From assembly GCA_001189165.1 (NCBI GenBank), contig LFCO01000003.1:190984-254983 (forward strand): a stretch of DNA of 64,000 bases, written 5' to 3'. The position numbers were made by a program, and so were the translations under genes. The notes beneath the pieces are model-generated. The model searched no databases. It worked only from the letters and a program-made list of their open reading frames with translations, and was not told the DNA's origin. Position 1 is the first letter of the stretch. The number at the start of each line of letters is the position of its first letter. This DNA comes from Parcubacteria bacterium C7867-005 (lineage in GTDB: Bacteria > Patescibacteriota > Minisyncoccia > Phycocordibacterales > Zambryskibacteraceae). This document shows, one piece after another, positions 5,142-60,158 of this stretch.

Positions 5142-5165
5142 GATAAGTGCAGTTTTTAAAGATAC

Positions 5166-5194
5166 TTGACAAAGTATACACTTATGACATTATT
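5166..5194 (+). promoter_or_regulatory. putative sigma70-like promoter for the GC-rich insert
   Basis: TTGACA, 17 nt spacer, ATTATT, upstream of CDS 5253. Confidence 0.35.
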
Positions 5195-5252
5195 ACGGGC
5201 GGAACATAGGCAGTAGTCCTTTACACCACCCAATCCATTCGAGGCACCGTAT

Positions 5253-5804
5253 ATGAGCAACTCTGTTGCGTTGGTCGCCATTGATCGTGTGGCGAAAGAT
5301 GTTCGCGGGGAGATCAGCGTCAGCGATCGACTGGTCACGCGAATCGCTGCAAAAAGGAATATCACGCCCGGCGAAGCGAGGGAACGAATCATCGCTTCTA
5401 CGGTGCGTTCGGCATTGAAGTTGTCGAACAACGACGAGAAGATCGCCACGACAGCGCTCGTGATCGTCCACGGAAAGTCGAATCGACTGCCGCAGTGCAC
5501 CAGGCTTCTTCGGAAGCATGATGCAAGTACGGTGTCCGTGGCGTATGAGGTGAAGGGCGAGCTCGCGATGTCGAATGTCTCACTCCGTGTGCTCTGTCAG
5601 TTCGTGGATTTCACTGACAGAGATATGGAGGGTGAGGTGTCCGAGCTTCGAGACGTGCTTGAAGAGATCGCGATGAAAGTGCCGTCGAAAGAGTACGAGT
5701 GGTCTCTCCATCATCGTCTGCGCGAAGGTCTTGAGCGGGGTCGCCCTCTCGCGGCCATGCGTGATGAGATCATGGATGAGATCGATCGCAGGATTTCTCC
5801 ATGA
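5253..5804 (+). CDS. hypothetical protein in the GC-rich insert
   Basis: 183 aa ORF, markedly higher GC than flanks; no recognisable domain. Confidence 0.55.
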   Translation: MSNSVALVAIDRVAKDVRGEISVSDRLVTRIAAKRNITPGEARERIIASTVRSALKLSNNDEKIATTALVIVHGKSNRLPQCTRLLRKHDASTVSVAYEVKGELAMSNVSLRVLCQFVDFTDRDMEGEVSELRDVLEEIAMKVPSKEYEWSLHHRLREGLERGRPLAAMRDEIMDEIDRRISP

Positions 5805-6793
5805 GGAATCCTATCGATGTCTTGTTTGGATCTCGTGTCATCTTCCATCTCAGGCGTCAACCAGCGGCGTTGAAACGCATCGCTGAGAGGATCAAGCCGT
5901 TGCTCATGGCGGCGGTTCATCCGGATCGCAACCATGACATCGGCCCAGAGGAAGCGGCTGAGATCAGTGAGGCGTATCAACGTCTCGTCTCTATGGCGCC
6001 GGAAGATCTTGAACCTCTCATCGCCGAGTTCTTGCGTCAGGATCGTGGAGAGGCGCTAAGGATCCAAATTCGAGATCTCCAGCAGTCAAAGGTTGGTCTT
6101 GAATTGGTTACAAGGAAGCAAGAAGCGAAGATCAAGGACCTTTCGGAAGAACTGTTTCGAGAGCGCGACGGGCGCAACAGATCCTTTGCCGCAGCGTTGC
6201 TCTGGTTCCAGTCCAGCTCAACATTCGAGCCAAGGGGTCTCGAGATGCTCGATGAAAATGCCATTCCTCGCGGGGCTATCCCCCGTGGGATGTTGCATCA
6301 TTATCGAGTTGTCGTCGAGCTAAATGACGGCAAGTTCAGATCTTACCAATTTGATCTTGCTGGCAGGGTTCGGCTCACAGTCTCTACGAGAAACATCCGT
6401 GATGCACGGGAAGCGTATCTTTTCCAAAACCACCCGCTTCCAAATAGCCGGATAAAGGTCAGTTCGAAGCGGGACAACCTTATCCTCATTGGATCTGCGA
6501 AGCGCCTTCCGAAGGGGATCGTTTTGTCACGTGCAATTGAAGATGGCTGGGCGAAGCCTTATGTCGAGAAGGGGATGCAGCCAGTTTTTGTATCCCTGAA
6601 TCGTCATGGCGTGCTCGAGATCGATCCGCTCAACAACCCTCTGTTGGATGGGGTTGGTACAATTGTTGACCTGATCGATCTGGATAGTGCCCGACGGAAA
6701 CTGGTCGGGCCGGGTGGTCGGGGGAGTGGAAATAGGGATAACCTTAAAACCCGTCTTGCAGAGCACAAGCAACGCAAGCGCCAGAAGAAGTAA
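5801..6793 (+). CDS. J-domain (DnaJ-like) protein, C-terminal region unknown
   Basis: LLMAAVHPDRNHDIGPEEAAEISEAYQRL matches the J-domain helix II-III region with HPD motif; overlaps the previous ORF by 4 nt (ATGA). Confidence 0.65.
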   Translation: MRNPIDVLFGSRVIFHLRRQPAALKRIAERIKPLLMAAVHPDRNHDIGPEEAAEISEAYQRLVSMAPEDLEPLIAEFLRQDRGEALRIQIRDLQQSKVGLELVTRKQEAKIKDLSEELFRERDGRNRSFAAALLWFQSSSTFEPRGLEMLDENAIPRGAIPRGMLHHYRVVVELNDGKFRSYQFDLAGRVRLTVSTRNIRDAREAYLFQNHPLPNSRIKVSSKRDNLILIGSAKRLPKGIVLSRAIEDGWAKPYVEKGMQPVFVSLNRHGVLEIDPLNNPLLDGVGTIVDLIDLDSARRKLVGPGGRGSGNRDNLKTRLAEHKQRKRQKK

Positions 6794-6807
6794 TCTGGCG
6801 CTTTTTT
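6778..6807 (+). terminator. intrinsic terminator after the J-domain gene
   Basis: GCGCCAG / CTGGCGC stem followed by TTTTTT; overlaps the stop codon. Confidence 0.7.
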
Positions 6808-6944
6808 AATATAAAACATGAGCAAGATCACCCTGCCATGACTATCGTGGTTATAGTGGGGAGGAGGGTAAGAGCCTTATTTGACAAGGGGGGACTGGGC
6901 TGATAAGCTGAATTACCAGCTTTTCGAAGCTATTTTTATTAAAT

Positions 6945-7130
6945 ATGGCAAAAACATCAGTAATCGCAAGGTCAAAAAAGATCCCCAAGTTCAGCACTCG
7001 GGCTACTCATCGTTGCTTCAAGTGTGGCCGTGGAAGGGGTTTTATGAGGGACTTTGATCTTTGCCGTATTTGTTTCAGAGAACTTGCGAACGAAGGCAAG
7101 ATTCCTGGAGTTAAAAAATCTTCCTGGTAA
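6945..7130 (+). CDS. rpsZ: 30S ribosomal protein S14 type Z (zinc-binding)
   Basis: 61 aa with CxxC...CxxC, S14-like. Confidence 0.9.
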
Positions 7131-16640: not shown

Positions 16641-16705
16641 GATAGACAAAATAAACAAGAAAGTCGCACTACGTGCGACTGGTATCTATCCGGTATCCCA
16701 CTGAC

Positions 16706-16757
16706 CCCCGTGTCAACCTGCCAGGTTGACACGGGGGCTACTGTTTTTGCTTTTCCT
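16706..16757. terminator. strong hairpin/terminator (second hairpin at 16663-16681)
   Basis: Perfect 14-bp stem CCCCCGTGTCAACC/GGTTGACACGGGGG followed by CTACTGTTTTTGCTTTT; a second perfect hairpin AGTCGCAC-TAC-GTGCGACT lies upstream. Confidence 0.6.
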
Positions 16758-17013
16758 TTCCCAACACCTTGATTCTGAGATCGAGACCGATCGACTTGAG
16801 GTTTGCCTGAAGCTTGCCGAGAGCGGTGAACGATAGTCCAGTCGCCGTGCCGGTGATGGCTATCCATGGACCATCGTCTTTTTCGAACTCCGTGCCAAAG
16901 GCGGCGTCTATATCGCCCATGGGCCACTTACCTCTGCCGACGGTGACAGGCGCAAAGTCACGCTTTGCATCAAAGAACACAACTTCGAGGGGAAGGTTCA
17001 CCCGGTATCGCAT
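16738..17013 (-). CDS. hypothetical protein (GC-rich module, downstream partner)
   Basis: 91 aa ORF in a GC-rich segment; no domain recognised. Confidence 0.45.
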   Translation of the reverse strand: MRYRVNLPLEVVFFDAKRDFAPVTVGRGKWPMGDIDAAFGTEFEKDDGPWIAITGTATGLSFTALGKLQANLKSIGLDLRIKVLGKEKQKQ

Positions 17014-17108
17014 GTCGTTCTCTGGGTTGGAGTGGTCTATGTTCGATACTATGCTTGTGGTTAATCAGTGTCAATGAAGAAGCGCACACCGTGAGGTGTG
17101 CGCTGTTG

Positions 17109-17657
17109 CTACCGAGGAATCGGTGCTGAGTCGGGCATGGTGGACGTCTCGATTTGATCGAGGATCTTCTGCTCATCCTGCGGACCGATCTCACCTCGGT
17201 TCACCAGGCGATAGAGGGCTTCCCTCGCGCCGGCCTTGGTGTTGGCCTCAGTGCCCTCCACCACCTGGTCGTTCTTGAGGATCGCGCTTTTCGGCGGATC
17301 CCCATCAGCCATGAGGAATTCGTACGAGCTCTTCTGGGGGGAGACGGCCGGGGCCAAGATCACGATGATTGCCCTGATTCCCTTGACTTCATCGAGGGAT
17401 GTGCGGTGGGGGAGGCCGGACGAGCGGATGTCGTTCTCGATTGCCGCTTTGTCTTTCAGCGGGATTCTTCCGGCGCGGAGGTTCTTCTCAAGGTGTTCGA
17501 TGGCCTGGCTCTGGCTTGTGTATGGGCCAGAAGCGGGCATCCCCTCCGGATCGAAGTAGTGCCCGTGCCGTGTGTGCAGATTGCAGGGCTCGCATCGACG
17601 GAAGCTGTGCCTCCCGGTAAAATCGGTGCCGGCTGCTGCTATTGCCAAACTCGCCAT
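17109..17657 (-). CDS. hypothetical protein with Cys/His-rich motif (GC-rich module)
   Basis: ORF with GAGGAC RBS before ATG 17657; motif FRRCEPCNLHTRHGHYFDPEG; higher GC than flanks. The antisense ORF 17154..17687 is judged spurious. Confidence 0.5.
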   Translation of the reverse strand: MASLAIAAAGTDFTGRHSFRRCEPCNLHTRHGHYFDPEGMPASGPYTSQSQAIEHLEKNLRAGRIPLKDKAAIENDIRSSGLPHRTSLDEVKGIRAIIVILAPAVSPQKSSYEFLMADGDPPKSAILKNDQVVEGTEANTKAGAREALYRLVNRGEIGPQDEQKILDQIETSTMPDSAPIPR

Positions 17658-17753
17658 GGGCAGGTCCTCAGAGTAGGAGACGCGTGAGATTCTAATTAAG
17701 AGCTGGTTTGAGAATACGATAATATACTTTCGAAGATGTGTCAATTAAACAAA

Positions 17754-17777: not shown

Positions 17778-17801
17778 TAAGGTTGTTAGACCTTTATTCT
17801 G

Positions 17802-18202
17802 TGGAGGTGGTGGGATTGAACCCACGTCCATGAGGATATTTGAAACGGGTCTACAAGGCGTAGTTTAGCTTGGTGTTTAGATCTATGAACTAAAAGCTAG
17901 ACAAAACATTCATAGATCGAGCTCGATCTTAGATCCTGAAGTGAGCAGTTTCCGGATTGGAGTCAGGCAGATTATGCGCCCCCTAACTCATGCCTGGCAG
18001 TGAGGATAGAGAACGTTCGGTACGAAGAGTATTAAGCTCTTACGTATGCGAATGCGAAATCGTTTGCTCCATAAAATGGAGAAACTATTGACTTCGCCTG
18101 TGCAAGAGTTGATTTTGCACTTAGGGTTCCAACCTTTTAAAGAGTTGTTGGAGCTCTGCCTCGCACGGGTCAAAGATGTCTCGTGTCAAAACTGACACCC
18201 CC
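17802..18202 (-). ncRNA. ssrA: transfer-messenger RNA (tmRNA)
   Basis: Minus strand: 5' GGGGGUG pairs with 3' CACCUCC including the G3:U70 wobble; T-arm GGGUUCAAUCCCACC and discriminator A; lies immediately downstream of smpB; candidate tag reading frame ANDFAFAYVRA ending in TAA around 18032-18067. Confidence 0.75.
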
Positions 18203-18694: not shown

Positions 18695-20659
18695 ATGTCG
18701 AAGCCTAATCTCCCAGGTAAAGATTCCAAAAAGAACGGCAAGAAACTTTTCAAGGTTGTTATTAAAGAAGTCAAAGGCAAGAACCCGCTTGGAGGTATAG
18801 GTGGCGGTTTTTTGAACCAGGGCGTACTTTCGATTTTGATTTTCTTCTTGCTTATAACTTCATATTCGTATCTATCTGGTAATGCTGATAAAAAGGAATC
18901 TATCTCGCTCTCTGTTCTCTCACAGAATGTAAGTGCAGAACTCGTCACCTCTATCACTGTAAAGGGAGATGAACTCGAAGCTCTCTACAAAGATGGTTCA
19001 GTGAAAACTTCAAAGAAAGAAGAGGGCACTGCGCTCACTACTACGTTCAGCAACTACGAAGTGTCCAAAGAGGCTCTGTCTAAAGTAGAGATAGAAGTCA
19101 AAAATGACAGAGGTTTTATGTATTGGATACTTTCACTTGCACCAATACTCTTGCCGATCGCTTTTATAGTTTTCTTTATTTGGTTCCTTTCTAGGCAGAT
19201 GAAGGGTGCAGGTATGCAAGCGATGTCCTTTGGACAATCCAAGGCACGTATGACCTTGCCCGACGACAAGACAAACCTGGTGACATTCAAAGACGTGGCC
19301 GGTGCAAAGGAAGCCAAAGAAGAATTGTCAGAGATCGTGGATTTCTTGAAAAATCCTAAAAAGTTTTTGGACATAGGTGCACGCATACCTAAAGGAATAC
19401 TCCTCATGGGAGCACCTGGTACTGGTAAGACATTACTCGCACGTGCTGTTGCCGGAGAGGCTGGTGTAGCTTTCTTTTCTATCTCCGGATCAGAATTCGT
19501 AGAGATGTTCGTCGGTGTTGGTGCTTCTCGTGTAAGAGATTTATTTGATATAGCCAAGAAATCTTCTCCAGCGATTATTTTCGTGGATGAGATAGATGCG
19601 GTAGGTCGTGTTCGAGGAACGGGGGTCGGGGGAGGGAACGATGAGCGCGAACAGACTTTGAACCAGATTTTGGTAGAGATGGATGGGTTCGAGCCAAACG
19701 AGAAAGTGATAGTGATGGCAGCGACGAACAGGCCGGACGTACTCGACCCAGCGCTCTTGCGCCCAGGCCGTTTTGACAGACGAGTGACACTCGATCTTCC
19801 GGACCGCGCAGATCGTGAAGAGATTTTGAAAATACATGCACGCAAGAAACCATTTGCAGAAGATGTGCACCTCCCACTCATCGCAGAACGTACGCCCGGA
19901 TTTTCTGGCGCTGATCTGTATTCACTCATGAACGAAGCGGCGATTCTCGCCGCGAGAGAAGACAGAACCAAAGTCGGTCAGTTCGATCTTATCCGTTCTA
20001 TAGAGAAGGTGATGCTCGGACCAGAACGTCGTTCGCATATACTTTCTAAGACAGAAAAAGAATTAACCGCATATCACGAAGCTGGTCATGCTGTACTCGC
20101 ATCAGTGCTCCCATACGCAGATCCTGTCCACAAAATCTCTATCATTTCTCGAGGTAGGGCTGCTGGTTATGTCCTCAAACTTCCACTCGAAGATAGAAAG
20201 CTTCAATCCAAAAAGGAATTCATAGATGACATCACTGTCGCTCTCGGTGGATATGTAGTAGAGAAGATGGTTTATGGAGATTTGACCACTGGTCCATCCA
20301 ATGACTTGCAGGTTTCTACTGCACTCGCGAGAGACATGGTCACTAAATATGGGATGAGTGAAAAGCTTGGACCAATCGCCCTCGAATCCGCAGGCGGACG
20401 AGTTATCTATGGTGCTGGGGTTGAAGACAAAGGGTATTCAGAGAGAGTGAGTGCAGAGATCGACGCAGAGGTGTCGAAGATCATGAGCGAAGCGATGAAG
20501 AATGCGGAGAAGATTATCAAAGAGCACAAAAAACTTTTGGAAGTGATCGCTAAACGTCTGGTTGAAAAGGAATCAATAGAACAAAAAGAATTCGAAGAGA
20601 TACTCATAGCAAATGGTATCACTCCGAAAAAGAAAAAAGACATCGAGCATCAAATATAA
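18695..20659 (+). CDS. ftsH: ATP-dependent zinc metalloprotease FtsH
   Basis: AAA+ Walker [21 protein letters not shown], second region of homology, HEAGHA zinc motif; TATAAT at 18682 only 7 nt before ATG 18695. Confidence 0.95.
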
Positions 20660-20665
20660 ATAAGG

Positions 20666-20693
20666 TCCCCCGAGCGTTAGCTCGGGGGATTTG
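20666..20693 (+). terminator. intrinsic terminator after ftsH
   Basis: TCCCCCGAGC-GTTA-GCTCGGGGGA then TTTGA. Confidence 0.6.
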
Positions 20694-21108
20694 ATACCAC
20701 GTAGTGGTCGAAGATATCCTCGCCCACTCGGGCGAGGAACCATGGTCGGCGATTCGTCCGGCAGTCGTGAAGGTCGATGAATCCGGGTTGATCCGCGATC
20801 CTCCGCCACCACTGATCCTTCTTACCGACACGCACGAAGGCTCTCATGGCACCGTGGAAGTCGCTCCACTCGCTGAACTTGTACCAAGTCTGCATGTCTG
20901 TCGCCACAGAGATGAGCACGATGATCCGTGCCTTACCCTCTGGGGGACAACTCACTCTGACAAGCTCGACGAGCTCTCCGCCCCCATGACGGTAGGAGAA
21001 GATCATCTGTGGCCTGAAGCGCAGGTTCCCGGTCTTCTGCCCTCCATCGGTCAGATGGCTGACCGTTTCCACCGCCTGGACAGCCGACGTTTCCATGGTT
21101 TGGGGCAT
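20677..21108 (-). CDS. hypothetical protein (GC-rich mini-island next to a tRNA)
   Basis: 143 aa ORF in a GC-rich stretch; strand choice uncertain because the antisense ORF 20704..21237 is also open. Confidence 0.35.
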   Translation of the reverse strand: MPQTMETSAVQAVETVSHLTDGGQKTGNLRFRPQMIFSYRHGGGELVELVRVSCPPEGKARIIVLISVATDMQTWYKFSEWSDFHGAMRAFVRVGKKDQWWRRIADQPGFIDLHDCRTNRRPWFLARVGEDIFDHYVVSNPPS

Positions 21109-21196
21109 GTGGGTCTCGGTTCGAGTGGGTACATCTCTCCTCTGAACCTATCAAAAACAGGTATACATGTCCACTTCCAACCATCCACAATACGTG

Positions 21197-21270
21197 TCCA
21201 CCCTCTTGGATTCGAACCAAGGACCCCCGAGGTATAAGCTCGATGCTCTAACCAACTGAGCTAAGGGTGG
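21197..21270 (-). tRNA. tRNA-Ile (anticodon UAU)
   Basis: Cloverleaf: acceptor CCACCCU/AGGGUGG, D-arm UAGCUCAGUUGGUUAGAGC, anticodon stem UCGAG/CUCGG with loop CUUAUAC (UAU), T-arm CUUGG-UUCGAAU-CCAAG, discriminator A73; no encoded CCA. Confidence 0.8.
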
Positions 21271-25089: not shown

Positions 25090-25383
25090 TTACCTAAATA
25101 AAGTGAGACCGAAGATGAGGGTGATGAATGCGAAGGTGCCGAGAGTCTTCAAGAAGAAGGTCACAGCTTCTTGCTTCCTGTTGTCGATGAAGAGTTGTAG
25201 TGGCTCGAAGACGAAGAGATAGAACATCACTCCAGCAGAGAGGGTGAAGAGTGAGATCATGGTGACAGGTGCGAAGAATGTGTCCGGCTTGTCGCCGAGT
25301 AACCTCGTGCCATAAAACATCCCCAGACCCAGGATAGTGATGTACAAGGATGCGCACACTGCATTTATGTATGGATTTTTCAT
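25090..25383 (-). CDS. hypothetical small membrane protein
   Basis: 97 aa, 3 predicted TM helices. Confidence 0.5.
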   Translation of the reverse strand: MKNPYINAVCASLYITILGLGMFYGTRLLGDKPDTFFAPVTMISLFTLSAGVMFYLFVFEPLQLFIDNRKQEAVTFFLKTLGTFAFITLIFGLTLFR

Positions 25384-25510
25384 GTAGCCATTATATCAGT
25401 AGTGGGGGATGTGCAACTTATATGAAATTAGCCCGGTTTTACCAACTTGACAGAGCCACTCAAGTATGATATGATGTAAAAAGGCTTAAGTCCCACACCC
25501 CATCTGGAGG

Positions 25511-25753
25511 TTGGCCATGAATGAATTTGTTGGCTTGCTCATCGTGAGCCTCGCCATGTGGCTCTCCGGATACGGAGCGGCCATGATGATGGGCCAGCAC
25601 GGGCGGTACGTCTCGTACAGCAAGAGGGTCGCCCGGTGGTTCGGCTCACAGGCCGTGTCGGCGACTCGCTTCATGTGGAGGCGCTATCCCACCCAGATAG
25701 TCTGGGCGACGATCGGATTCTTCCTTGCTCTTGTTCTCCTCGGGCCCCGCTGA
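25511..25753 (+). CDS. hypothetical small membrane protein (GC-rich)
   Basis: 80 aa, 2 TM helices, GC-rich; GC hairpin GGGCCCCGC...GCGGGGCCC overlaps the stop codon at 25742-25767. Confidence 0.4.
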   Translation: MAMNEFVGLLIVSLAMWLSGYGAAMMMGQHGRYVSYSKRVARWFGSQAVSATRFMWRRYPTQIVWATIGFFLALVLLGPR

Positions 25754-25783
25754 AACTAGCGGGGCCCAGTTCGTATCGTATTT

Positions 25784-26711: not shown

Positions 26712-26733
26712 TTGCGGAGAGAGCGAGATTGAA
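26712..26733. repeat. direct repeat of the tRNA 3' end (copy distal to tRNA 26830-26916)
   Basis: TGCGGAGAGAGCGAGATTGAAC vs TGCGGAGAGAGCGAGATTCGAAC at 26828-26850. Confidence 0.85.
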
Positions 26734-26827: not shown

Positions 26828-26829
26828 AT

Positions 26830-37692: not shown

Positions 37693-37697
37693 ATTTT

Positions 37698-38240: not shown

Positions 38241-38250
38241 ACTGAAAAAT

Positions 38251-38547: not shown

Positions 38548-38559
38548 TTTAAATTACTC

Positions 38560-40284: not shown

Positions 40285-40292
40285 TCAATACT

Positions 40293-40682
40293 ATGAAAAA
40301 GCAATATTCGATACTCATAGTAGATGATGACAAGTTTCTCCTGGACATGTATGTGAAAAAGTTTGAGAAGTTCGGCATCCAACCAGATCTATCAGTTGGT
40401 TCTGCAGGAGCCCTGGAGAAACTCAGAGGTGGGGTTACTCCAGATGTTATTGTTCTCGACATCATCATGCCGGGTATGGATGGTCTAGAACTCCTAGAGA
40501 CTATCCGCAAAGAAAACCTTTCTCCAAGCTCTATAGTGATTATGCTCACCAATGAAGGTGAGTCCCAGAAGATAGAAAAAGCAAAATCACTCGGCGTTGT
40601 TGGCTATATAGTCAAAGCGACCAGTATCCCATCTGAAGTAGCAGATGAGATTATCAGAATCGCGGATGAGAATATTAAATAA
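40293..40682 (+). CDS. response regulator receiver-domain protein
   Basis: CheY-like: DD at residues 11-12, phospho-acceptor D in VIVLDIIMPGMDG, conserved K in YIVK. Confidence 0.8.
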   Translation: MKKQYSILIVDDDKFLLDMYVKKFEKFGIQPDLSVGSAGALEKLRGGVTPDVIVLDIIMPGMDGLELLETIRKENLSPSSIVIMLTNEGESQKIEKAKSLGVVGYIVKATSIPSEVADEIIRIADENIK

Positions 40683-40691
40683 ATACAACCA

Positions 40692-41756
40692 ATGGCATCT
40701 TCAGAAAAACTTTTAAGCGAATTAGTAGACATCGTGTTCAAAGAAGGAGCTTCCGATCTCCATCTGTCCGAAGGTAGATCACCGGTCATCAGAGTTTCTG
40801 GTTTCTTGATCCCCCTTGTGAAAATCCCATCCCTTACAGCAGAAGATTTGGAGGGTTTTGTGTCTATTTTCCTCACAGCAGATGACAAGCTTGAATTTAA
40901 AGAACAAAAAGAAGCTAACTTTGCTTATGAACACAAAGATGTTGGGAGGTTCCGTGGCAATGTCTTTCAAGAATTAGGCAAAATCTCTATTGCCCTACGC
41001 CTGATTCCTTCTAAGGTTAAAACTCTTGAAGAACTTAATCTGCCTCCTATACTTTCTTCTTTCTCCAAACGACAACAAGGGTTTTTCCTCGTCGTCGGTC
41101 CAGCTGGGCAAGGTAAATCTACAACACTTGCTAGTTTGATCGAACTTATAAACCAGGAGAGACTCGAACACATCATCACTATCGAGGATCCTATCGAATT
41201 TATCTTTGAGCCAAAGAAAGCCCTCATAGATCAAAGAGAGGTGAAGACAGATACACCAGATTTCAAAACGGCCTTGCGTGGTGTTTTCAGACAGGATGCC
41301 GATGTGGTGATGGTTGGAGAAATGCGTGATGCAGAGACTATCTCTACTGCGGTTACCGCAGCGGAGACCGGTCACCTTATCATGTCTACTTTGCACACCA
41401 ACACAGCGTCTCAGACTGTCGATCGTATTATCGACTCATTCCCTCCATCCCAACAAGATCAGATCAGAATCCAGCTCTCAGGAAGTCTGCTCGGGATCTT
41501 TTCTCAGCGTTTGATCCCTCGCATTTCTGGTGGACTCATACCTGCATATGAATTACTCATCAACAACAATGCTGTCGGTAACCTCATCAGAGAGAAGAGA
41601 ACACATGAGATCAATACAGTTATAGAGACAGGATCAGAAGATGGGATGATCGATCTCAACAGATGTCTCGCTGCGCTCGTCAAAGCGGGGGAGATCACAG
41701 TAGAAAACGCATTCTTGTATTCAGCTAATCCTCGAACACTAGAGAGGATGATATAA
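40692..41756 (+). CDS. pilT: twitching motility ATPase PilT
   Basis: 354 aa; Walker A GPAGQGKSTT; PilT-length protein without the GspE N-domain. Confidence 0.85.
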   Translation: MASSEKLLSELVDIVFKEGASDLHLSEGRSPVIRVSGFLIPLVKIPSLTAEDLEGFVSIFLTADDKLEFKEQKEANFAYEHKDVGRFRGNVFQELGKISIALRLIPSKVKTLEELNLPPILSSFSKRQQGFFLVVGPAGQGKSTTLASLIELINQERLEHIITIEDPIEFIFEPKKALIDQREVKTDTPDFKTALRGVFRQDADVVMVGEMRDAETISTAVTAAETGHLIMSTLHTNTASQTVDRIIDSFPPSQQDQIRIQLSGSLLGIFSQRLIPRISGGLIPAYELLINNNAVGNLIREKRTHEINTVIETGSEDGMIDLNRCLAALVKAGEITVENAFLYSANPRTLERMI

Positions 41757-41760
41757 AACC

Positions 41761-42969
41761 ATGCTCTATCTCTATAAAGCACTCGAAAGCTCTGGCGCAA
41801 GGAAAGAAGGCTCTATCGAAGCTGTTTCTATAGACATAGCCATAGATAGTCTCCAGAAAAGGGGGCTGATCATCGCAGAGATAGAGCCAGCAGAAAAAGA
41901 AGCTTGGTACAACCAATTTTCAATAGGTACTGGAGTGTCCAACAAAGAGATCGTCATCCTATCAAGGCAGATGGCAACACTTTTTGATGCTCAAATCAGT
42001 GCCCTCAAGATATTTTCTCTTCTATCTGCGGAGGTAGAGAATGATACCTTGCGCAAAAAGCTCGCGGTGATCACTGATGATTTGCAAGCGGGTAGTTCTA
42101 TCTCCAAATCACTTTCTAGGCATCCAGAAATCTTCTCTGAATTTTATGTGAACATGGTTAAGTCAGGTGAAGAGACGGGTAAGTTGAACGAAACCTTCAA
42201 TTACCTAGCAGATTATCTGGATAGGAGTTATGAAGTTGTGTCCAAGGCCAAAAACGCACTGATTTACCCAGCCTTTGTCATTTCTGTGTTCATCGCAGTT
42301 ATGGTGCTCATGTTCACTTTCATTATCCCTAAAATCAGTGTGATCTTGGTTGATTCTGGTCAGCCTGTACCTTTCTATACCCAAATTGTTTTTGGGATAT
42401 CTGATTTCTTTTTGAACTACGGGGTCCTACTCCTGGCCGGTCTTGTGGTAGCTGTCTTTTTGTTCATTCGGTACATAAGAACAGAGGCTGGAGCCAGGGC
42501 CTTTGCCAAATTTAAACTGGAGGTCCCTTATGTTGGTGATCTTTATAAAAAGCTCTACCTTTCCATCATCGCAGATAACATGAACACTATGGTTTATTCA
42601 GGAATTCCCATGGTTAGAGCCATAGAAGTCACCGCGTCAGTGGTAGGGAACGATGTTTATAAGGATATTTTGCTCGAGAGTCTGACTGCGGTGAAGGGGG
42701 GGAGCTCGTTCTCTCAGTCCCTGTCTCAGTATGAAGAGATGCCGGGGATGCTCATCCAGATGATCCGTGTGGGTGAAGAGACTGGGGAGCTCGGCAGTAT
42801 CCTCAAAACTATGGCCAAATTTTATCAAAGAGAGGTCGTAAATGCCGTGGATACCATGGTTAGCTTGATCGAGCCTATCATGATCGTGATGCTCGGTTTG
42901 GGTGTGGGTACACTGCTCGCTTCTGTGCTCATCCCTATATACAATATTGCTAACTCGGCTGGGGCCTGA
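41761..42969 (+). CDS. pilC: type IV pilus platform protein PilC (GspF family)
   Basis: 402 aa, two T2SSF repeats, 3 TM. Confidence 0.85.
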   Translation: MLYLYKALESSGARKEGSIEAVSIDIAIDSLQKRGLIIAEIEPAEKEAWYNQFSIGTGVSNKEIVILSRQMATLFDAQISALKIFSLLSAEVENDTLRKKLAVITDDLQAGSSISKSLSRHPEIFSEFYVNMVKSGEETGKLNETFNYLADYLDRSYEVVSKAKNALIYPAFVISVFIAVMVLMFTFIIPKISVILVDSGQPVPFYTQIVFGISDFFLNYGVLLLAGLVVAVFLFIRYIRTEAGARAFAKFKLEVPYVGDLYKKLYLSIIADNMNTMVYSGIPMVRAIEVTASVVGNDVYKDILLESLTAVKGGSSFSQSLSQYEEMPGMLIQMIRVGEETGELGSILKTMAKFYQREVVNAVDTMVSLIEPIMIVMLGLGVGTLLASVLIPIYNIANSAGA

Positions 42970-43060
42970 TTCGGACCGAGGAAGACAGTTATCCACAAGC
43001 TTATTTAAAAAGGCTAGCTATGGGTATATAATCAATAGGTAACTAAAAGTAATAATAATT

Positions 43061-43513
43061 ATGTCAAAAAGGTTAAATAACAAAAAGGGTTTTACCCTCA
43101 TCGAACTTCTGGTCGTCATCGCTATCATCGGTATTCTTTCTTCTGTTGTGCTTGCATCTTTGAACACAGCTCGAGGCAAGGGTAATGATGCCAAGGTCAA
43201 AGCTCAGCTTTCTGGACTTCGCGCAGCAGCCGAGATTTACTATGACAACCAAACTCCAAATAGCTACGGAGCAGCTGGAGTCGCGTGTGGAGCAGGTATG
43301 TTTGCAGATGCAGTCATGCTTCCTTACACAACACAAGCTAACTATCCTTCAGGAGCAACTCTTGAATGTATCTCAACAGGTACAGGATACGCAGTGTCAG
43401 CTCTACTTCCAGGAGCAGGAGGCACAATTAACTGGTGTGTGGACAGTGCGGGTGCTTCAAAGCAGAATGCAACTGACCTCATCGGTGCAGGTGGTACAGA
43501 CATCACTTGTTAG
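43061..43513 (+). CDS. pilA: type IV pilin (major pilin candidate)
   Basis: Class III signal: KKGFTLIELLVVIAIIGILSS; Cys pair near the C-terminus. Confidence 0.85.
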   Translation: MSKRLNNKKGFTLIELLVVIAIIGILSSVVLASLNTARGKGNDAKVKAQLSGLRAAAEIYYDNQTPNSYGAAGVACGAGMFADAVMLPYTTQANYPSGATLECISTGTGYAVSALLPGAGGTINWCVDSAGASKQNATDLIGAGGTDITC

Positions 43514-43534
43514 TATCTTAGTTTGATTCTACTC

Positions 43535-43562
43535 AAAAAACCGCCTTCTGGGCGGTTTTTTT
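43535..43562 (+). terminator. intrinsic terminator after the pilin gene
   Basis: AAAAAACCGCC-TTCTG-GGCGGTTTTTTT. Confidence 0.75.
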
Positions 43563-43578
43563 GTTATACTTAAACATA

Positions 43579-44373
43579 ATGTTTATATTGATTTGTCTTT
43601 TTATCCTCGGTGCGATAGTCGGTAGTTTCTTAAATGTAGTTGGTCTGCGTCTTAACTCTGGACTAACTTTAGGAGGGAGGTCGTTTTGCCCAGTTTGTCA
43701 TAAACAACTCTCCTGGCACGAACTTATCCCTATAGTGAGCTACCTATTGCTCGTTGGTAGGTGCAGTAAATGTAAGTGTGCTATCTCTGCACAGTATCCA
43801 CTCATTGAATTCTTTACTGGCCTCGTGTTTGTTACCGTGTATCAATCTATCCTGGTTCCCATTACTCCGATCGTGGTTGCTCTGTATGCACTTTTGTTAA
43901 TAGTTTTCTGTCTATACATCGCTATCCTCATTTATGATTCTAGGCACAAGATAATCCCAGATCAGCTAGTGTATGCATCCATTATATTCGCATTGATCTA
44001 CAGATTTATAAACGGAGGTACCCTTTTTGATTGGCTCGCTGGGCCGATTATGTTTATGTTCTTTGCTGCGATCTGGTATTTTTCCCTTGGCCGGGCGATG
44101 GGTTTCGGAGACGCGAAGCTCGCACTCTCTATCGGGCTCCTCCTCGGTGCCCCCATGGGGTTTTCTGCGTTCGCTCTTTCGTTTTGGATAGGGACTCTCT
44201 GTGTCCTGTCTATCATGATTTTGTCTAGGATGGGTTATTCTTTGTTTGGTAAAGCAAAAAGACTTACAATGAGTAGCGAGATCCCATTTGCACCATTCCT
44301 TATTTTTGGTTCTTGGATAAGTCTTATCTATAAACTCGACCTTTTTCATGTCATCAGTCTCACTATCAAATAA
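43579..44373 (+). CDS. pilD: prepilin peptidase PilD (A24 family)
   Basis: N-terminal CxxC...CxxC zinc motif (CPVCHKQ...CSKCKC), multi-TM peptidase domain; ATG 43579 preferred over TTG 43561. Confidence 0.85.
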   Translation: MFILICLFILGAIVGSFLNVVGLRLNSGLTLGGRSFCPVCHKQLSWHELIPIVSYLLLVGRCSKCKCAISAQYPLIEFFTGLVFVTVYQSILVPITPIVVALYALLLIVFCLYIAILIYDSRHKIIPDQLVYASIIFALIYRFINGGTLFDWLAGPIMFMFFAAIWYFSLGRAMGFGDAKLALSIGLLLGAPMGFSAFALSFWIGTLCVLSIMILSRMGYSLFGKAKRLTMSSEIPFAPFLIFGSWISLIYKLDLFHVISLTIK

Positions 44374-48851: not shown

Positions 48852-50272
48852 TTGATTTAAATTCACTTACTATTTCTTCTGCTAGAGAAGCTTTGAAGGC
48901 GCGGAAGTTTTCTGCGCGTGAATTGATGGAAGCCTCTATCCAAACAATCAAAGATAAAGATTCGGATATTCATGCATTTCTTGAGGTATTTGAAGATGCT
49001 CTAGGTCTAGCAGATGAAGCAGATAAAAAAATAAAAGAAGGGGTAGATCTACCTTTGCTTGGCGTACCTATCGCTCTCAAAGACAACATGCTTGTTTCTG
49101 GACATAAGGTGTCTGCTGGATCGAAAATTTTGGAAAATTTTACTGCACCGATAGACAGCACTGCTGTTCGTAAATTAAAGGACGCGGGGGCCATCATCAT
49201 CGGTAGGACAAACATGGATGAGTTTGCTATGGGTAGCTCCACAGAGAATTCTTCGTATGGTCCAACCAAGAACCCGATCGATCCTACCCGTGTTCCTGGG
49301 GGTTCTTCTGGTGGCTCTGCTGCAGCAGTAGCTTCTGGGATGGTGATCGGCGCTCTCGGGTCAGACACGGGCGGTTCTATCAGGCAACCCGCTGCCTTTT
49401 GTGGACTCGTGGGTTTAAAGCCTACTTATGGTCGAGTGTCCCGCTCTGGCTTGATCGCTTATGGCTCGTCGCTTGATCAGATCGGGCCATTGGTCAAAAC
49501 TGTTTCTGATGCAGAGATTTTATATGACGTGTTGAAAGGGCAGGATCCCATGGACAGTACGACGATAGGTGATCAGTCTTATCCTAAGAAAAAAGATTTC
49601 AAAAAGATAATTGGAGTGCCCAGAAGTTTTGTAGAGAGTGAAGGGGTGAGTCCAGAGATTAAGAAAAATTTCCAAGAAACAGAAAAAAGATTTCGCGACC
49701 TTGGTTATGAGGTTCGTGACATAGAATTGGAGCATTTGAGATTTTCATTGTCCGTTTATTATATTGTCGCCTTGGCTGAATCTTCTTCAAACCTGGCGCG
49801 TTTCGATGGGGTTAAATACGGACTCCATGTAGATGGCGATAATGGTATTGATGATTATTTTAAAACGCGCGGGGCTGGTTTTGGTCAAGAGGTTCGGAGG
49901 AGAATCATCCTAGGTACCTACGTACTTTCTTCTGGATACTATGATGAGTACTACAATACGGCTCTGAAGGTTCGAAAACTTATAACTGATGAGTTTAGAA
50001 AAGTGTTTATGGAAGTCGATTTGATACTCACGCCAACCACTCCAACTTCAGCATGGAAGATGGGTGAGAAAAGTACCAGCCCACTGGAGATGTATCTTGA
50101 AGATATTTTTACTGTGCCTGCTAACACCACTGGTTGTCCGGCGATATCGCTCCCATCAGGTCATGAGGAGATTAACCAAATAAAACTGCCATTAGGTATC
50201 GAGCTAACTGCTGATCTAGGCAGAGAGGATAATCTACTAAAAGCAGGTAAAGAATTTTTGGGAGAGAAGTAG
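48848..50272 (+). CDS. gatA: aspartyl/glutamyl-tRNA amidotransferase subunit A (amidase)
   Basis: Amidase signature GGSSGGSAAAVA; 474 aa. Confidence 0.9.
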   Translation: MIDLNSLTISSAREALKARKFSARELMEASIQTIKDKDSDIHAFLEVFEDALGLADEADKKIKEGVDLPLLGVPIALKDNMLVSGHKVSAGSKILENFTAPIDSTAVRKLKDAGAIIIGRTNMDEFAMGSSTENSSYGPTKNPIDPTRVPGGSSGGSAAAVASGMVIGALGSDTGGSIRQPAAFCGLVGLKPTYGRVSRSGLIAYGSSLDQIGPLVKTVSDAEILYDVLKGQDPMDSTTIGDQSYPKKKDFKKIIGVPRSFVESEGVSPEIKKNFQETEKRFRDLGYEVRDIELEHLRFSLSVYYIVALAESSSNLARFDGVKYGLHVDGDNGIDDYFKTRGAGFGQEVRRRIILGTYVLSSGYYDEYYNTALKVRKLITDEFRKVFMEVDLILTPTTPTSAWKMGEKSTSPLEMYLEDIFTVPANTTGCPAISLPSGHEEINQIKLPLGIELTADLGREDNLLKAGKEFLGEK

Positions 50273-51126: not shown

Positions 51127-51203
51127 GTCGGCGTAGCTCAGTTGGTTAGAGCGTGGGACTCATAAGCCCAAGGTCGGAGGTTCGATCCCCCCCGCCGACA
51201 CCA
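51127..51203 (+). tRNA. tRNA-Met (anticodon CAU, elongator-type acceptor), CCA encoded
   Basis: GUCGGCG/CGCCGAC acceptor (G1-C72), D-arm UAGCUCAGUUGGUUAGAGC, loop CUCAUAA, T-loop UUCGAUC, A73-CCA; could alternatively be tRNA-Ile2 if lysidinylated. Confidence 0.8.
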
Positions 51204-51251
51204 AACATAAAATACCTCGCTTTATGTGGGTTGTTTTATGTTTGATTTTGG

Positions 51252-51345
51252 GAGATCGAACAGGAGAGGGGGTCGGGGAGAAGCAGGGCGTCTCCCCGTG
51301 GAGGAAGGTCTGGAAAAACCGTGGGTTTCCCAAGAGTGAGATCAG
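51252..51345 (+). ncRNA. conserved structured element, copy B (3' of tRNA-Met), followed by repeat of the tRNA 3' end at 51346-51359
   Basis: About 85% identity to copy A (26734-26827, minus strand); the distal repeat CCCCCGCCGACACC duplicates 51187-51202. Confidence 0.4.
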
Positions 51346-51403
51346 CCCCCGCCGACACCCCAGATTGATTTAGGGCCATAAGTCTGCTATTTTATAGACC
51401 ATT

Positions 51404-51475
51404 GCGGCTGTAGCTCAACGGTAGAGCACTCCCCTGTCACGGGAGAGGCCGTGGGGTCAGCACCCATCAGCCGCG
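51404..51475 (+). tRNA. tRNA-Asp (anticodon GUC)
   Basis: GCGGCUG/CAGCCGC acceptor, G73, anticodon stem CUCCC/GGGAG loop CUGUCAC; unusual T-loop GUCAGCA; no encoded CCA; followed by hairpin AAAGAGTCC...GGACTCTTT. Confidence 0.75.
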
Positions 51476-51536
51476 CTAGCGAAAAGAGTCCTAGAAATGG
51501 GACTCTTTCCTGTGCGGGTCTATAAGACATGGAGCT

Positions 51537-51545
51537 GGTATAATT
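51537..51545 (+). promoter_or_regulatory. extended -10 promoter TGGTATAAT (leaderless arrangement); identical element at 52325-52333
   Basis: TGGTATAAT ends 6 nt before ATG 51552; the second copy ends 6 nt before ATG 52340. Confidence 0.5.
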
Positions 51546-51551
51546 TTTTGT

Positions 51552-51914
51552 ATGAGAGACTATAAAGAGTTAATTTTTGAGCTAGAAAATAAGCTTCAGC
51601 ATCCAGAGGTTCGGAAATCTGTGCAGGAGCTTGATGGGTTAATATCAAATGATCTAATTGAGTTTGGAAGTTCTGGGCAAGTCTATACGAAGAAAGATGT
51701 GCTTGTGAATCTTCCAAGCTCTACAGAGATCAAATTTAACATGACTGATTTCGATGTTATTGCTCTGGGTCCAGACATTGTTCAGTCGCGTTTCAAGACC
51801 GAAAAGACAAATTTGCAGACAGGAGAAATTACCAGATCGCAGAGAAGTTCTCTTTGGCGAAATGAGAATGGAAAATGGAAAATGATATTTCACCAAGGCA
51901 CACCCACGAAGTGA
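51552..51914 (+). CDS. NTF2-like/SnoaL-like (DUF4440 family) protein
   Basis: C-terminal NGKWKMIFHQGT motif typical of DUF4440. Confidence 0.55.
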   Translation: MRDYKELIFELENKLQHPEVRKSVQELDGLISNDLIEFGSSGQVYTKKDVLVNLPSSTEIKFNMTDFDVIALGPDIVQSRFKTEKTNLQTGEITRSQRSSLWRNENGKWKMIFHQGTPTK

Positions 51915-57782: not shown

Positions 57783-57865
57783 GCTTTTTTGAATAAGGGT
57801 TCCCAACTTCGTACCATGAGGTCAGTTAGCTTGACAGGGATTAAGTTTAAATGTAAACCAGATAT

Positions 57866-58621
57866 GTGAACAAATCGGAACTAAAAGTGGTTTTAATCTG
57901 CGGGGGGAAGGGGACCAGAGTCTCTGAGCTTACAGGTGCTGTAAGCCCTAAATCGTTAATCAGGTTAAGTAAAAAGGTGTCTAGGCCTCTTGTTGCGTAT
58001 CAACTAGACCAACTAAAGAGGGCCGGAGTTAAGAGTGTTCTACTCGTACTCGAGAATGATTGGCAGGTTCCAATTTTCAAACACTCGATAAGATCGGGAG
58101 AGTTTCCTGGTATGAACTACTCTTTTAGCACCTGTTTTACTCTCCATCCTTTTTCTATCTTTTCCCATCCAGACATAACAAAATTTATAGGCCGATCTAA
58201 TTTCCTGGTCTCCTACGGGGATATCTACTACTCTCTAGACATTCTAGGAAAAATGAAAAAATTGTTATCAAGGAACAACACTTCAGTCGCATGTGGTATG
58301 TATTCAAAAAGTAAGCGCTGGAGAAAGGGTAAAAAATTTATAACCTTCTCTAAAAATAATAAAGGAGAAGTGGTCAATATAGGGTATTCGGACAAGGCAG
58401 ATTTTACAATCCACGCCCCCTTTTTATTCAAACACAAAGCACTGGGGACAATTTTAAGACGGGCAAAGCTTAACTCGGCCAGAACTATTCCGATCCTTTC
58501 CGACCTCATAGGAACGAGTAATTTGTCTGTGGTTACCCCACGGCGGTTGGTTAATTTAACTACTTTGCAGGATGCTAAAAATGTTGAAGGAGCAATAAGA
58601 GAAGGGCATTTAAACCAATAA
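57866..58621 (+). CDS. sugar-phosphate nucleotidyltransferase-family protein (GTG start)
   Basis: N-terminal LICGGKGTRV (GGxGTRL motif). Confidence 0.55.
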   Translation: MNKSELKVVLICGGKGTRVSELTGAVSPKSLIRLSKKVSRPLVAYQLDQLKRAGVKSVLLVLENDWQVPIFKHSIRSGEFPGMNYSFSTCFTLHPFSIFSHPDITKFIGRSNFLVSYGDIYYSLDILGKMKKLLSRNNTSVACGMYSKSKRWRKGKKFITFSKNNKGEVVNIGYSDKADFTIHAPFLFKHKALGTILRRAKLNSARTIPILSDLIGTSNLSVVTPRRLVNLTTLQDAKNVEGAIREGHLNQ

Positions 58622-58668
58622 AATTCGAACATCGTACCAGACGGGCAGCTCGTGATATTCTAGAGATA

Positions 58669-59631
58669 ATGGAAAAAACCAAATTTCAACTCATTATTGA
58701 AGCCACGAAAGAAATAGATGATCTATTTGAAAATACCTCAACAATGAATGAGAAGTTTTCTCTTGTGTTTCCAGTTCCCAAAAGTGGAAACCATAGAGAG
58801 ACAATAGATTCTTACCTATATCGCTCCAGTGAGATAGAAAACCTGGATCTTGGTAATTCTTTTGTAATCTGCGACGAGAATCTTAAAAATACTTTTGTTA
58901 ATGAAGTATTAAATGGTAAAGATATTTACTATATAAATTCTGCAGAGGGGGATATAAAAGAAATTGGAACCTTGGGTAAATTTATCGACGGTCACCAAAA
59001 TGAAATTGTTGATAAGAGCAGAATTGTAGCCATGGGTGGTGGAATTATTTTAAATATCACTGCATATATTGCGGAAAAGTTTACCAAAGATTTGGTATAT
59101 ATACCCACAACAATAATATCAATGTCTGATGGAAGCATGGGTGGAAAAGTAAGAGTGAATAAAATTGAAGGTAACATATTCATTAAACACTTCTATAAAA
59201 GCTTTTATGAGCCCAATGAAATTTTAATCGATAAGAGGTTTCTTAACTCTCTGTCTGAAGAGGGAATAAGGGTGGGCGTGGCTGAAGTTGTTAAACACGG
59301 GGTATACCAATCAGCAAAACTCTTAGAGTACCTGAATTCACAGAAATTTAACCCCCATGAAGATAAAGATAGTTTATGGAAAGCGATTCTGTGGACGGCC
59401 TCATTGAAAAAAGTTTGCTTAGATATTGATTACGAAGAAACAAAAGAAGGGTCGAATATTATTCTAAGGGGTGGGCATGATATCTCGGATAAGATTGAGG
59501 AGGAGTCTCGTTTTACTATTCACCACGGCAGGGCGGTAACTATGGGAATGTGGCAAGATTTAGAGTCAGCTAACTCGATTACTCCAGCTATTGAAGCGAT
59601 TTATTCTAAATTAGGTCTCGCCAAGGCCTAG
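58669..59631 (+). CDS. 3-dehydroquinate synthase-like sugar phosphate cyclase
   Basis: IVAMGGGIILNITAYIA and VYIPTTIISMSDGSMGGKVRVN match DHQS-family NAD/metal-binding motifs. Confidence 0.6.
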   Translation: MEKTKFQLIIEATKEIDDLFENTSTMNEKFSLVFPVPKSGNHRETIDSYLYRSSEIENLDLGNSFVICDENLKNTFVNEVLNGKDIYYINSAEGDIKEIGTLGKFIDGHQNEIVDKSRIVAMGGGIILNITAYIAEKFTKDLVYIPTTIISMSDGSMGGKVRVNKIEGNIFIKHFYKSFYEPNEILIDKRFLNSLSEEGIRVGVAEVVKHGVYQSAKLLEYLNSQKFNPHEDKDSLWKAILWTASLKKVCLDIDYEETKEGSNIILRGGHDISDKIEEESRFTIHHGRAVTMGMWQDLESANSITPAIEAIYSKLGLAKA

Positions 59632-59736
59632 AAAAGTTTCAACTTCGTATTACAATGTCATTAAATTGACTTCTATCTTTTTGTGTGATTTTATCTTGAA
59701 AGAGTACGGTTAAGTCACCCTTACCGCCAAGGTTCT

Positions 59737-60075
59737 ATGCCGAATACCAAGAAGAGGAGACCGTCCGTTCGAAGTAAGAGGAAGATCGAATTCGTGAGCC
59801 ATGAATACAAGCTCTGTGACCCCATGTCCTCCGATGGCCCCATTTTCGGGGAGGTGACAACGGTCAGGGTTCGTGAGGGAACTATCCTCTACCTTCAATG
59901 CTGGAATGGCGAAAGGTCTAGTGAGTACGGGCTAGTGCCTGGCTTCATCGCTTCTCCCTGGTACAAAAGGGGGAGCAGGAGAGCCGCGCTAGTGAACCCG
60001 CTCACAGAAGCCGGCAGGAAGAAGTACGCGAAGAAGTTCGGCAAGCTTCTCAGGGGGAATGTCAATTTCTGGTAA
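59737..60075 (+). CDS. hypothetical basic protein (GC-rich cassette)
   Basis: 112 aa, markedly GC-rich relative to neighbours. Confidence 0.4.
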   Translation: MPNTKKRRPSVRSKRKIEFVSHEYKLCDPMSSDGPIFGEVTTVRVREGTILYLQCWNGERSSEYGLVPGFIASPWYKRGSRRAALVNPLTEAGRKKYAKKFGKLLRGNVNFW

Positions 60076-60158
60076 TCCGCCCGGCATAATGCTGGCGGTT
60101 CTTTTTAAAATAAGCCACAGGCTCATTCTAAGTGGTAGGCTCGTGATATTCTTAAAAT

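Follow-up and report, generated by a model that had tools for sequence, protein, structure and literature searches.

The closest described counterparts of the elements considered here are the morons of bacteriophages, which carry a promoter and a terminator of their own, differ in GC content from their neighbours, and lie between genes that are adjacent in relatives; their deviant GC content implies horizontal transfer (Hendrix/Juhala; reviewed in PMC3594210). Here we describe seven small GC-rich islands in Parcubacteria bacterium C7867-005, all located within a 64,000-nucleotide stretch of contig LFCO01000003.1 (positions 190,984 to 254,983), which we refer to as the window and number from its first letter. 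C7867-005 is a metagenome-assembled genome of 563 kb and 42% GC from Hanford groundwater, and the GC content of its sister Parcubacteria in that sample spans 36 to 56% (PMC4508563). The islands contain nine genes, which we designate A1 and A2 (island 1), B1 and B2 (island 2), and C, D, E, F and G (islands 3 to 7 respectively). On balance we favour the interpretation that these are small accessory islets of two classes, six of them moron-like micro-cassettes carrying ORFan genes, and the other, island 1, a module found in Patescibacteria.

GC content sampled in 300-bp intervals has a standard deviation of 0.048 around an overall value of 0.440, and at 44.0% GC the backbone, which a preliminary description of this DNA called AT-rich, is thus only mildly so. 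All seven GC-rich intervals named in that description are local maxima (0.52–0.59 GC), at 5150–7000 (island 1, 0.519), 16700–17750 (island 2, 0.561), 20690–21130 (island 3, 0.587), 25440–25770 (island 4, 0.577), 26990–27240 (island 5, 0.570), 34190–34570 (island 6, 0.562) and 59700–60080 (island 7, 0.535). Every segment listed is therefore real, although the count of at least eight islands comes down to seven, with nine genes within them; likewise, the insert reported in a ribosomal operon is present, but the operon is one of ribosomal proteins (L5 to S14) and not of rRNA, of which there is none in the window. A tenth gene that is GC-rich at third codon positions (GC3 0.66) is located at 25090–25383 on the minus strand, abutting island 4. 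Three additional GC peaks were considered as islands and rejected, one within the region coding for the ftsH AAA domain (19580–19986), one corresponding to the gatA amidase gene (49142–49579), and one to a tRNA cluster (51143–51568). The density of GC peaks is 1.41 per 10 kb in the window compared to a mean of 0.67 in 100 related loci; this is about twice that of the related loci, yet the window is not unique and ranks 14th of 101.

The island genes stand out at their third codon positions, with GC3 values of 0.56–0.80 relative to a median of 0.44 (standard deviation 0.08) for 89 open reading frames (ORFs), such that the stronger island genes lie 3.5–4.5 standard deviations above the median. 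Long ORFs are present on both strands of the islands, as observed previously. In the coding frames GC is 0.45–0.63 at the first position (GC1), 0.40–0.49 at the second (GC2), and 0.56–0.80 at the third, and the mirror frame on the opposite strand has a GC1 of 0.68–0.76. The differences between codon positions are significant for every ORFan gene, with p values from 5e-3 to 6e-8 (p = 6e-6 for C and p = 6e-8 for F). From this pattern we conclude that the island ORFs are protein-coding, now or until recently, and that the long opposite-strand ORFs are shadows, in agreement with the earlier suggestion that they are an artefact of composition. The proposal of one or two small genes per island also holds, and these show strong three-base periodicity. 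For island 5 the public record has a 124-aa ORF (26879–27253, minus strand) that runs into tRNA-Ser(ACU) and, by its high GC1, looks like a shadow; the genuine gene of this island is probably E, on the plus strand. For annotation, this means that GC3-rich genes yield shadow ORFs, and at least one wrong-strand call has apparently entered the public record.

The seven ORFan genes (B1, B2, C, D, E, F and G) have a common codon usage that is not that of their surroundings. The pool has a GC3 of 0.73, and its relative synonymous codon usage (RSCU) correlates strongly between two arbitrary halves (r = 0.84) but not with that of the backbone (r = 0.02). The ORFans are thus foreign at synonymous sites and their coherent RSCU fits one source, and repeated acquisition from a GC-richer source, as first proposed, is plausible for these six islands, if unproven. 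B2 and C are true ORFans and match only themselves among 5.8 billion proteins, in a deep search that covered these two of the ORFans. No Pfam, PHROGs, PADLOC or NCBIfam family is significant for any island protein, and the 97-aa product of the gene at 25090–25383 similarly has no family match. With tblastn, none of the island proteins matched anything in cultured phages or plasmids, IMG/VR scans with F, G, B1, B2, C and the A2 family gave no relatives, PDB sequence searches with B1, B2, C, F, G and the A1 family gave nothing, and comparison with 2.1 Mb of related loci gave no match to the ORFans; B1 is a singleton cluster at 90% identity. We considered whether the islands could be copies of one repeat or miniature inverted-repeat transposable element and rejected this, as blastn and tblastx find no shared sequence other than a 16-nt leader common to D and E.

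Most of islands 2–7 appear to be self-contained transcription units, composed of a predicted promoter, a small ORF, and a predicted terminator; all of the promoters and terminators described here are pattern matches. TTGACA or TTGACT boxes are found for A1–A2, B1, B2, D and G, and C and F have no promoter at the level of the scanner. Hairpins followed by T-runs are located after A2, B1, B2, C, D, E, F and G, with perfect stems of 10–16 bp and loops of 1–8 nt. The strong GC hairpins noted previously at the island boundaries are thus present, and we interpret them as terminators because the stem and T-run come directly after the stop codons.

Island 2 contains two such units on the minus strand. 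B2 (17109–17657; 182 aa, GC3 0.72) has a promoter-like site at 17744–17716 (TTGACA, 17 nt, TATCGT) positioned just past the terminator of the tmRNA gene (17799–18202) that lies upstream, and this is followed by a GAGGA site; a hairpin at 17104–17081 follows the stop codon. B1 (16738–17013; 91 aa, GC3 0.63) has a promoter-like site at 17074–17046 (TTGACA-17-TAGTAT), a hairpin with a 16-bp perfect stem after its stop codon (16705–16737), and a second terminator at 16680–16662. In island 3, C (20677–21108, minus strand; 143 aa, GC3 0.73) lies between the ftsH stop codon (20659) and the 3' end of tRNA-Ile(UAU) (21196–21270), on the same strand as the tRNA, and its terminator hairpin (20666–20689, minus strand), with a 10-bp GC stem, abuts the ftsH stop. 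In island 4, D (25517–25753, plus strand; 78 aa, GC3 0.80) codes for a protein with two hydrophobic segments, and has a near-consensus promoter with a TG element at 25447–25475 (TTGACA, 17 nt, TATGAT), a GGAGG ribosome-binding site, and a hairpin spanning the stop codon (25742–25767); the public record also calls D as a 78-aa gene. Its neighbour at 25090–25383 (minus strand; overall GC 0.47) codes for the 97-aa protein, which has three hydrophobic segments. E, in island 5, is located on the plus strand between divergent tRNA-Ser(ACU) and tRNA-Ser(GCU) genes, and is about 67 aa long if started at the GTG at 27032 (27032–27235; GC3 0.79) or 79 aa from a TTG at 26996; it has two hydrophobic segments and a hairpin with a T-run (27222–27250). 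D and E share the leader motif TCCCACACCCCAYCTG followed by GGAGG ahead of the start codon (25491–25510 and 27004–27026), and the motif occurs nowhere else in the window, while the two proteins are barely alike (BLASTP E = 0.012). F (34193–34558, minus strand; 121 aa, GC3 0.76) runs antisense to msrA and to a 141-aa gene, which are its neighbours, and has an AGGAG ribosome-binding site and a terminator with an 11-bp stem and TTTTT (34199–34174). G (59737–60075, plus strand; 112 aa, GC3 0.69) is flanked by a DHQ-synthase-like gene and a cupin gene, with a TTGACT box at 59667 and a terminator-like hairpin at 60081–60095. By character, D, E and the 97-aa neighbour are small membrane proteins, G is very basic (23 K+R), and F is acidic.

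We compared the positions of the islands with the corresponding regions of the nearest relatives, which are Taylorbacteria-like and other Patescibacteria metagenome-assembled genomes with 64–74% identity in FtsH and up to 75% in SmpB. The gene order is conserved: secY...RNase J, L20, L35 and IF3 come before a first variable stretch, tmRNA, smpB and ftsH come before a second one, which includes tRNA-Ile(UAU), and recG follows. In 16 relatives the two slots, IF3 to tmRNA/smpB and ftsH to tRNA-Ile to recG, range from about 0.1 to 5 kb; their cargo, among it pilin-like proteins and a toxin-antitoxin-like pair, is unrelated and has host-like GC3. tRNA-Ile(UAU) is present between ftsH and recG in all 16 of the relatives checked. 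The arrangement is minimal in the related locus L010, where ftsH is followed by 57 bp, tRNA-Ile, recG, tRNA-Ser(ACU), 70 bp, and tRNA-Ser(GCU), and it is exactly these close junctions that islands 3 and 5 occupy in the window; for the island 2 slot, the distance from IF3 to smpB is 450–600 bp in L011 and L016. Islands 2 and 3 are positioned immediately 3' of tmRNA and tRNA-Ile respectively, and island 5 between the two tRNA-Ser genes. Island 3 is flanked by a 13-nt direct repeat, AAGG(T/A)CCCCCGAG, at 20662–20674 and at 21219–21231, the second copy being inside tRNA-Ile (nucleotides 40–52); the copies are identical at 12 of the 13 positions and the similarity extends no further. This repeat is a hint, and not proof, of tRNA-directed integration. 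No convincing flanking repeat was seen at islands 2 and 5.

There are further peculiarities at the tRNA-Ser(ACU) gene (26830–26917). Just 3' of it, at 26712–26829 on the minus strand, is a degenerate second tRNA-like copy, the last 18–20 nt of which (TTCAATCTCGCTCTCTCCGC) are an exact repeat of the tRNA-Ser(ACU) 3' end; it looks like an att-site duplication or an integration scar. The 18-nt duplicate bounds only about 100 bp, and an inverted 13-nt fragment of the T-arm is located at 26806–26818. In L010, recG abuts tRNA-Ser(ACU), and the segment 23457–26829, with five genes including D, is therefore extra in the window relative to L010. ARAGORN predicts this tRNA-Ser to have the anticodon ACU, beside the usual tRNA-Ser(GCU), and it recurs in at least two relatives (L006 and L010); an unmodified A34 in tRNA-Ser(ACU) would be unusual for bacteria.

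Island 1 belongs to the second class. It is located between the genes for L5 (rplE, 4556–5089) and S14 (rpsN, 6945–7130), both identified by Pfam. The adjacency of L5 and S14 is near-universal, and it is on this that the placement of island 1 between adjacent genes rests. Its left edge (5118–5193, plus strand) consists of a terminator-like hairpin at 5118–5134, following the rplE stop codon at 5089, and a promoter-like site at 5166–5193 (TTGACA, 16 nt, CATTAT, with a TG extension). A1 (5253–5804, plus strand; 183 aa) is the upstream gene of the module, with GC of 0.60/0.42/0.65 at the three codon positions and conserved residues that include NRLPQC..LL and TD.D..GE; it has no Pfam, PHROG, NCBIfam, PADLOC or PDB match and its relatives are found only within the module. 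A2 (5801–6793, plus strand; 330 aa) overlaps A1, and in an intrinsic terminator overlapping the A2 stop codon (6776–6803, plus strand) TTTTTTAATATA comes after a 10-bp stem; ahead of rpsN there is a TTGACA box at 6882 on the plus strand. It would appear that the module, which has a promoter and terminators of its own, landed between rplE and rpsN, thereby splitting the spc ribosomal operon.

An exhaustive search shows that A2 is a member of a family with 13 other representatives at E<1e-30 and 34–44% identity. The predicted layout of A2 has a J-domain-like N-terminus, a long helix at residues 67–140, and a beta-rich C-terminal domain. The HPD motif (H40-P41-D42) is invariant in 16 A2-family sequences, and in the AlphaFold2 model (predicted local distance difference test score, pLDDT, 80.5) it is flanked by helices at 21–38 and 49–64. 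When the A2-family profile was compared with the PDB, the best matches were to DnaJ J domains (E = 1e-3 to 0.1), and five of the 16 family members match Pfam DnaJ below threshold (best E 9.4e-4), with A2 itself having no Pfam match. Foldseek with A2 reports a viral DnaJ with a probability of 0.87 but an E value of 0.24, and the long helix and beta-rich domain have no significant structural match. These similarities suggest that A2 is a divergent, J-domain-like protein with a long helix and a beta-rich domain appended; it is presumably a DnaK co-chaperone or adaptor, with A1 as its partner.

The A1–A2 pairing is conserved. In all five independent contexts retrieved, an A1 homologue (196–216 aa) is located directly upstream of an A2 homologue, either overlapping or adjacent, and the neighbours differ in each: rpoD and uvrD; SMC; HisRS and dnaE; a HisRS-like gene, ybeY and ftsA; and fpg and murC. 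The genes flanking the module best match Patescibacteria loci, although the comparison set is biased towards Patescibacteria. We conclude that island 1 is a two-gene operon shared between Patescibacteria and not a high-GC import; its closest homologues are in Patescibacteria-like contigs of 41–49% GC, where they too are locally elevated in GC, which is the very finding that the preliminary description had named as counting against a high-GC donor. The module has 0.46–0.54 GC compared to 0.41–0.49 for the host contigs or flanks, and its GC3 exceeds that of the host in five of six genomes, for example in L086 (0.74 and 0.54 versus 0.29). GC3 of the A1-like gene equals or exceeds that of the A2-like gene in all six (L082, L084, L086, L087, L088/L089, and the window; 0.52–0.74 versus 0.38–0.56), and a simple donor-composition model therefore does not explain the pattern. 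This order of the two genes and the lasting GC excess of the module could stem from a constraint intrinsic to the genes, or from movement out of a reservoir richer in GC.

For the ORFan cassettes, which typically have a putative sigma-70-type promoter, usually a Shine-Dalgarno sequence, one small ORF, and a GC-hairpin terminator, we consider horizontal acquisition from one GC-richer pool (about 55–62% GC) to be the most likely origin. Candidates for such a pool are mobile DNA or GC-richer bacteria of the community, possibly other Patescibacteria, and either recent arrival or repeated replacement would explain why codon usage is not yet host-like. Several observations weigh against an origin of this type. 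The higher GC3 of A1-like than of A2-like genes points to a gene-intrinsic cause, and the same could hold for the ORFans. Neither donor, homologue nor vehicle was found for any ORFan, where B1, D, E, F and G were searched only in family libraries, phages, plasmids, IMG/VR (close relatives) and local loci, and at the island edges there is neither a recombinase nor an inverted terminal repeat nor a clear att site. Islands 1, 6 and 7 are not adjacent to tRNAs, the short repeat flanking island 3 came to light post hoc, and C is without a convincing promoter or ribosome-binding site of its own. Finally, the nearest relatives are only 64–75% identical in FtsH or SmpB, too distant to date the change or to tell gain from loss.

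The strongest competing explanation is that the ORFans are native, lineage-specific genes whose GC content is intrinsic and arises through mRNA stability or structure, expression, or protein composition. The behaviour of the A1–A2 module, which is raised in GC in six host backgrounds with A1-like genes at or above A2-like genes, would be accounted for in this way. Isolated small GC3-rich genes also occur in other Patescibacteria loci, two in L107 (1008–1664 and 11635–12249, GC3 0.75 and 0.88, without Pfam match) and one in L056 (12986–13408, a DUF2203 gene with GC3 0.81), against backgrounds of 42–48% GC, and GC3-rich mini-islands may be a broader feature of Patescibacteria. The RNA of island 3 is, in addition, unusually stable (z = -5.9). 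However, a native origin does not readily explain why seven unrelated ORFans should share one codon usage that is uncorrelated with that of the host, and the ribosomal and other presumably well-expressed genes of the window have no island-type GC3 bias. Moreover, the cargo in the same slots of relatives has host-like GC3, and folding z-scores other than that of C are unremarkable (-2.3 for B2, and between -1.1 and +0.5 for B1, D, E, F and G). We therefore regard native genes as an unlikely explanation.

A second alternative, raised in the preliminary description, is that an epibiotic cell of the candidate phyla radiation (CPR) repeatedly received genes from a host lineage of high GC, for instance Actinobacteria. 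Codon usage in the islands is coherent, rich in GC3, and different from that of the backbone, and the loci with which the ORFan-pool RSCU correlates best (49–70% GC) do include Chloroflexi-type loci of 65–70% GC (r ~0.75). High-GC Patescibacteria loci fit nearly as well (r = 0.70–0.72), however, and regressions of codon-position GC on genomic GC in 96 loci imply a source GC of 0.61 from GC3, 0.58 from GC2, and 0.45 from GC1, with GC1 and GC2 being modest. An implied source of about 0.61 GC or lower is below that of typical Actinobacteria, and is compatible with GC-richer Patescibacteria (53–57% in the same sample and relatives) or an unsampled mobile pool. No homologue of any island protein was found in high-GC lineages, in searches that went deep for A2, B2 and C, B2 and C have none in any lineage among 5.8 billion proteins, the island 1 homologues are in low-GC Patescibacteria-like contigs, and C7867-005 has no known host. 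A high-GC host as donor is thus improbable.

A third alternative is that some islands are structured non-coding RNAs or fossils in which the ORFs are spurious, and island 3 is the main candidate. The C ORF has a folding z-score of -5.0, and the whole stretch from the tRNA to the terminator (20660–21195) folds on the minus strand, that of the tRNA, at -238.8 kcal/mol compared to -195.9±7.3 kcal/mol for shuffled sequences (z = -5.9), with a z-score of -3.3 on the opposite strand. A true long inverted repeat was considered here and rejected, as pairing involves about 65% of the arm positions and shows no fixed codon register. C is poor in translation and transcription signals of its own, the AlphaFold2 single-sequence model of C is uninformative (pLDDT 35), and spurious ORFs would appear as ORFans. 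Against this, every island gene has a significant periodicity of GC by codon position, good GGAGG or AGGAG sites precede D, E and F, the RNAs of B1, D, E, F and G are not unusually stable, and Rfam gives no match inside the islands even at E<=1, with gathering scores reached only by the tRNAs and tmRNA. Non-coding islands are accordingly a distinctly improbable explanation. Lastly, that the islands are assembly chimeras from co-assembled GC-richer Parcubacteria is scarcely credible, for although the sample held Parcubacteria of 53–56% GC (PMC4508563) and several islands abut conserved tRNA or tmRNA genes at which an assembler might jump, there are syntenic genes of the same genome on both sides of each island, the edges of the islands fall at promoters and terminators, neither B2 nor C has a relative in any other genome, co-assembled ones included, and a second, independent public assembly is identical across islands 2–5 (0 mismatches in 20,432 bp).

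Our preference for accessory islets of two classes leads to a broader proposal that we offer only tentatively, and which we think is rather unlikely in its full form: Patescibacteria may exchange a pool of self-expressing micro-cassettes that lack a recognisable recombinase, that keep GC3-rich codons regardless of the GC content of the host, and that insert at the flanks of tRNA and tmRNA genes and even in the spc operon. If so, the J-domain module would be a widespread member of the pool and the ORFans strain-specific members, and the pool would amount to an analogue of phage morons at the level of the chromosome, in genomes of ultra-small size. The genomes of CPR bacteria are tiny and streamlined, and their accessory content may provide hints about interactions with hosts and mobile DNA. 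Judging by the window, one-gene, self-contained units with foreign codon usage appear to make up a sizeable share of that content, located in a few recurrent slots and without a recognisable mobility gene. The two-gene family, in which the larger product carries the invariant J-domain motif, is uncharacterised and shared between Patescibacteria, and here it interrupts one of the most conserved bacterial operons; splitting of the spc operon may affect ribosomal-protein marker pipelines that assume contiguity.

Two other gene clusters in the window can be mentioned. Next to island 5 is a low-GC (0.37–0.41) defence cluster at 27461–31210, which codes for a BglII-like endonuclease, a LexA/S24-fused N6/N4 methyltransferase, and an AbiTii-family protein. 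A type IV pilus cluster of normal GC content spans 35784–44373, with PilM-like and PilO-like proteins, two T2SSE ATPases, a T2SSF platform protein, and a prepilin peptidase.

Islands 2–7 are most similar to phage morons. At the level of sequence patterns they share the anatomy of single-gene, independent units, their GC content (0.52–0.59 compared to 0.44, island 1 included) departs from that of their surroundings, and islands 3 and 5, and more broadly island 2, lie between genes that are adjacent in relatives. They differ in location, since morons reside in phages or prophages and the islands do not; the island neighbours are housekeeping genes, including those for ribosomal proteins, ftsH, smpB, recG, msrA and tRNAs, and no phage gene or homologue was found near the islands in PHROG, phage and IMG/VR searches. 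A second comparison is with genomic islands targeted to tRNA and tmRNA genes, which the locus resembles in the positions of islands 2, 3 and 5, in the repeat that ties island 3 to the body of a tRNA, and in the degenerate 3' copy of tRNA-Ser nearby. The islands here are only 0.25–1.1 kb, however, three of them (1, 6 and 7) are away from tRNAs, none of the island ORFs matches an integrase or recombinase in Pfam, NCBIfam, PHROG or PADLOC, and the island 3 repeat corresponds to tRNA nucleotides 40–52 rather than the 3' end. Integron cassettes are also small, mostly ORFan, single-gene units bounded by hairpin-forming sequences, but the island hairpins have the anatomy of terminators and not of attC, the islands have promoters of their own and are scattered instead of arrayed, and there is no IntI.

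For island 1, the closest comparison is with DnaJ/Hsp40 proteins. The A2 family shares with these the invariant HPD motif and helices that align with J-domain helices II and III, and differs in that the A2 match is below the Pfam DnaJ (PF00226) threshold and the rest of the protein is without significant structural match. A2 is always encoded together with a small partner, as in pairs of the CbpA-CbpM type, although the A1 partner is upstream and is presumably unrelated to CbpM. Taken together, the islands are probably of a known kind, namely small horizontally acquired islets; what is new is modest, and lies in the CPR setting, in the coherent, GC3-rich pool of ORFans, and in the J-domain module that splits the spc operon.

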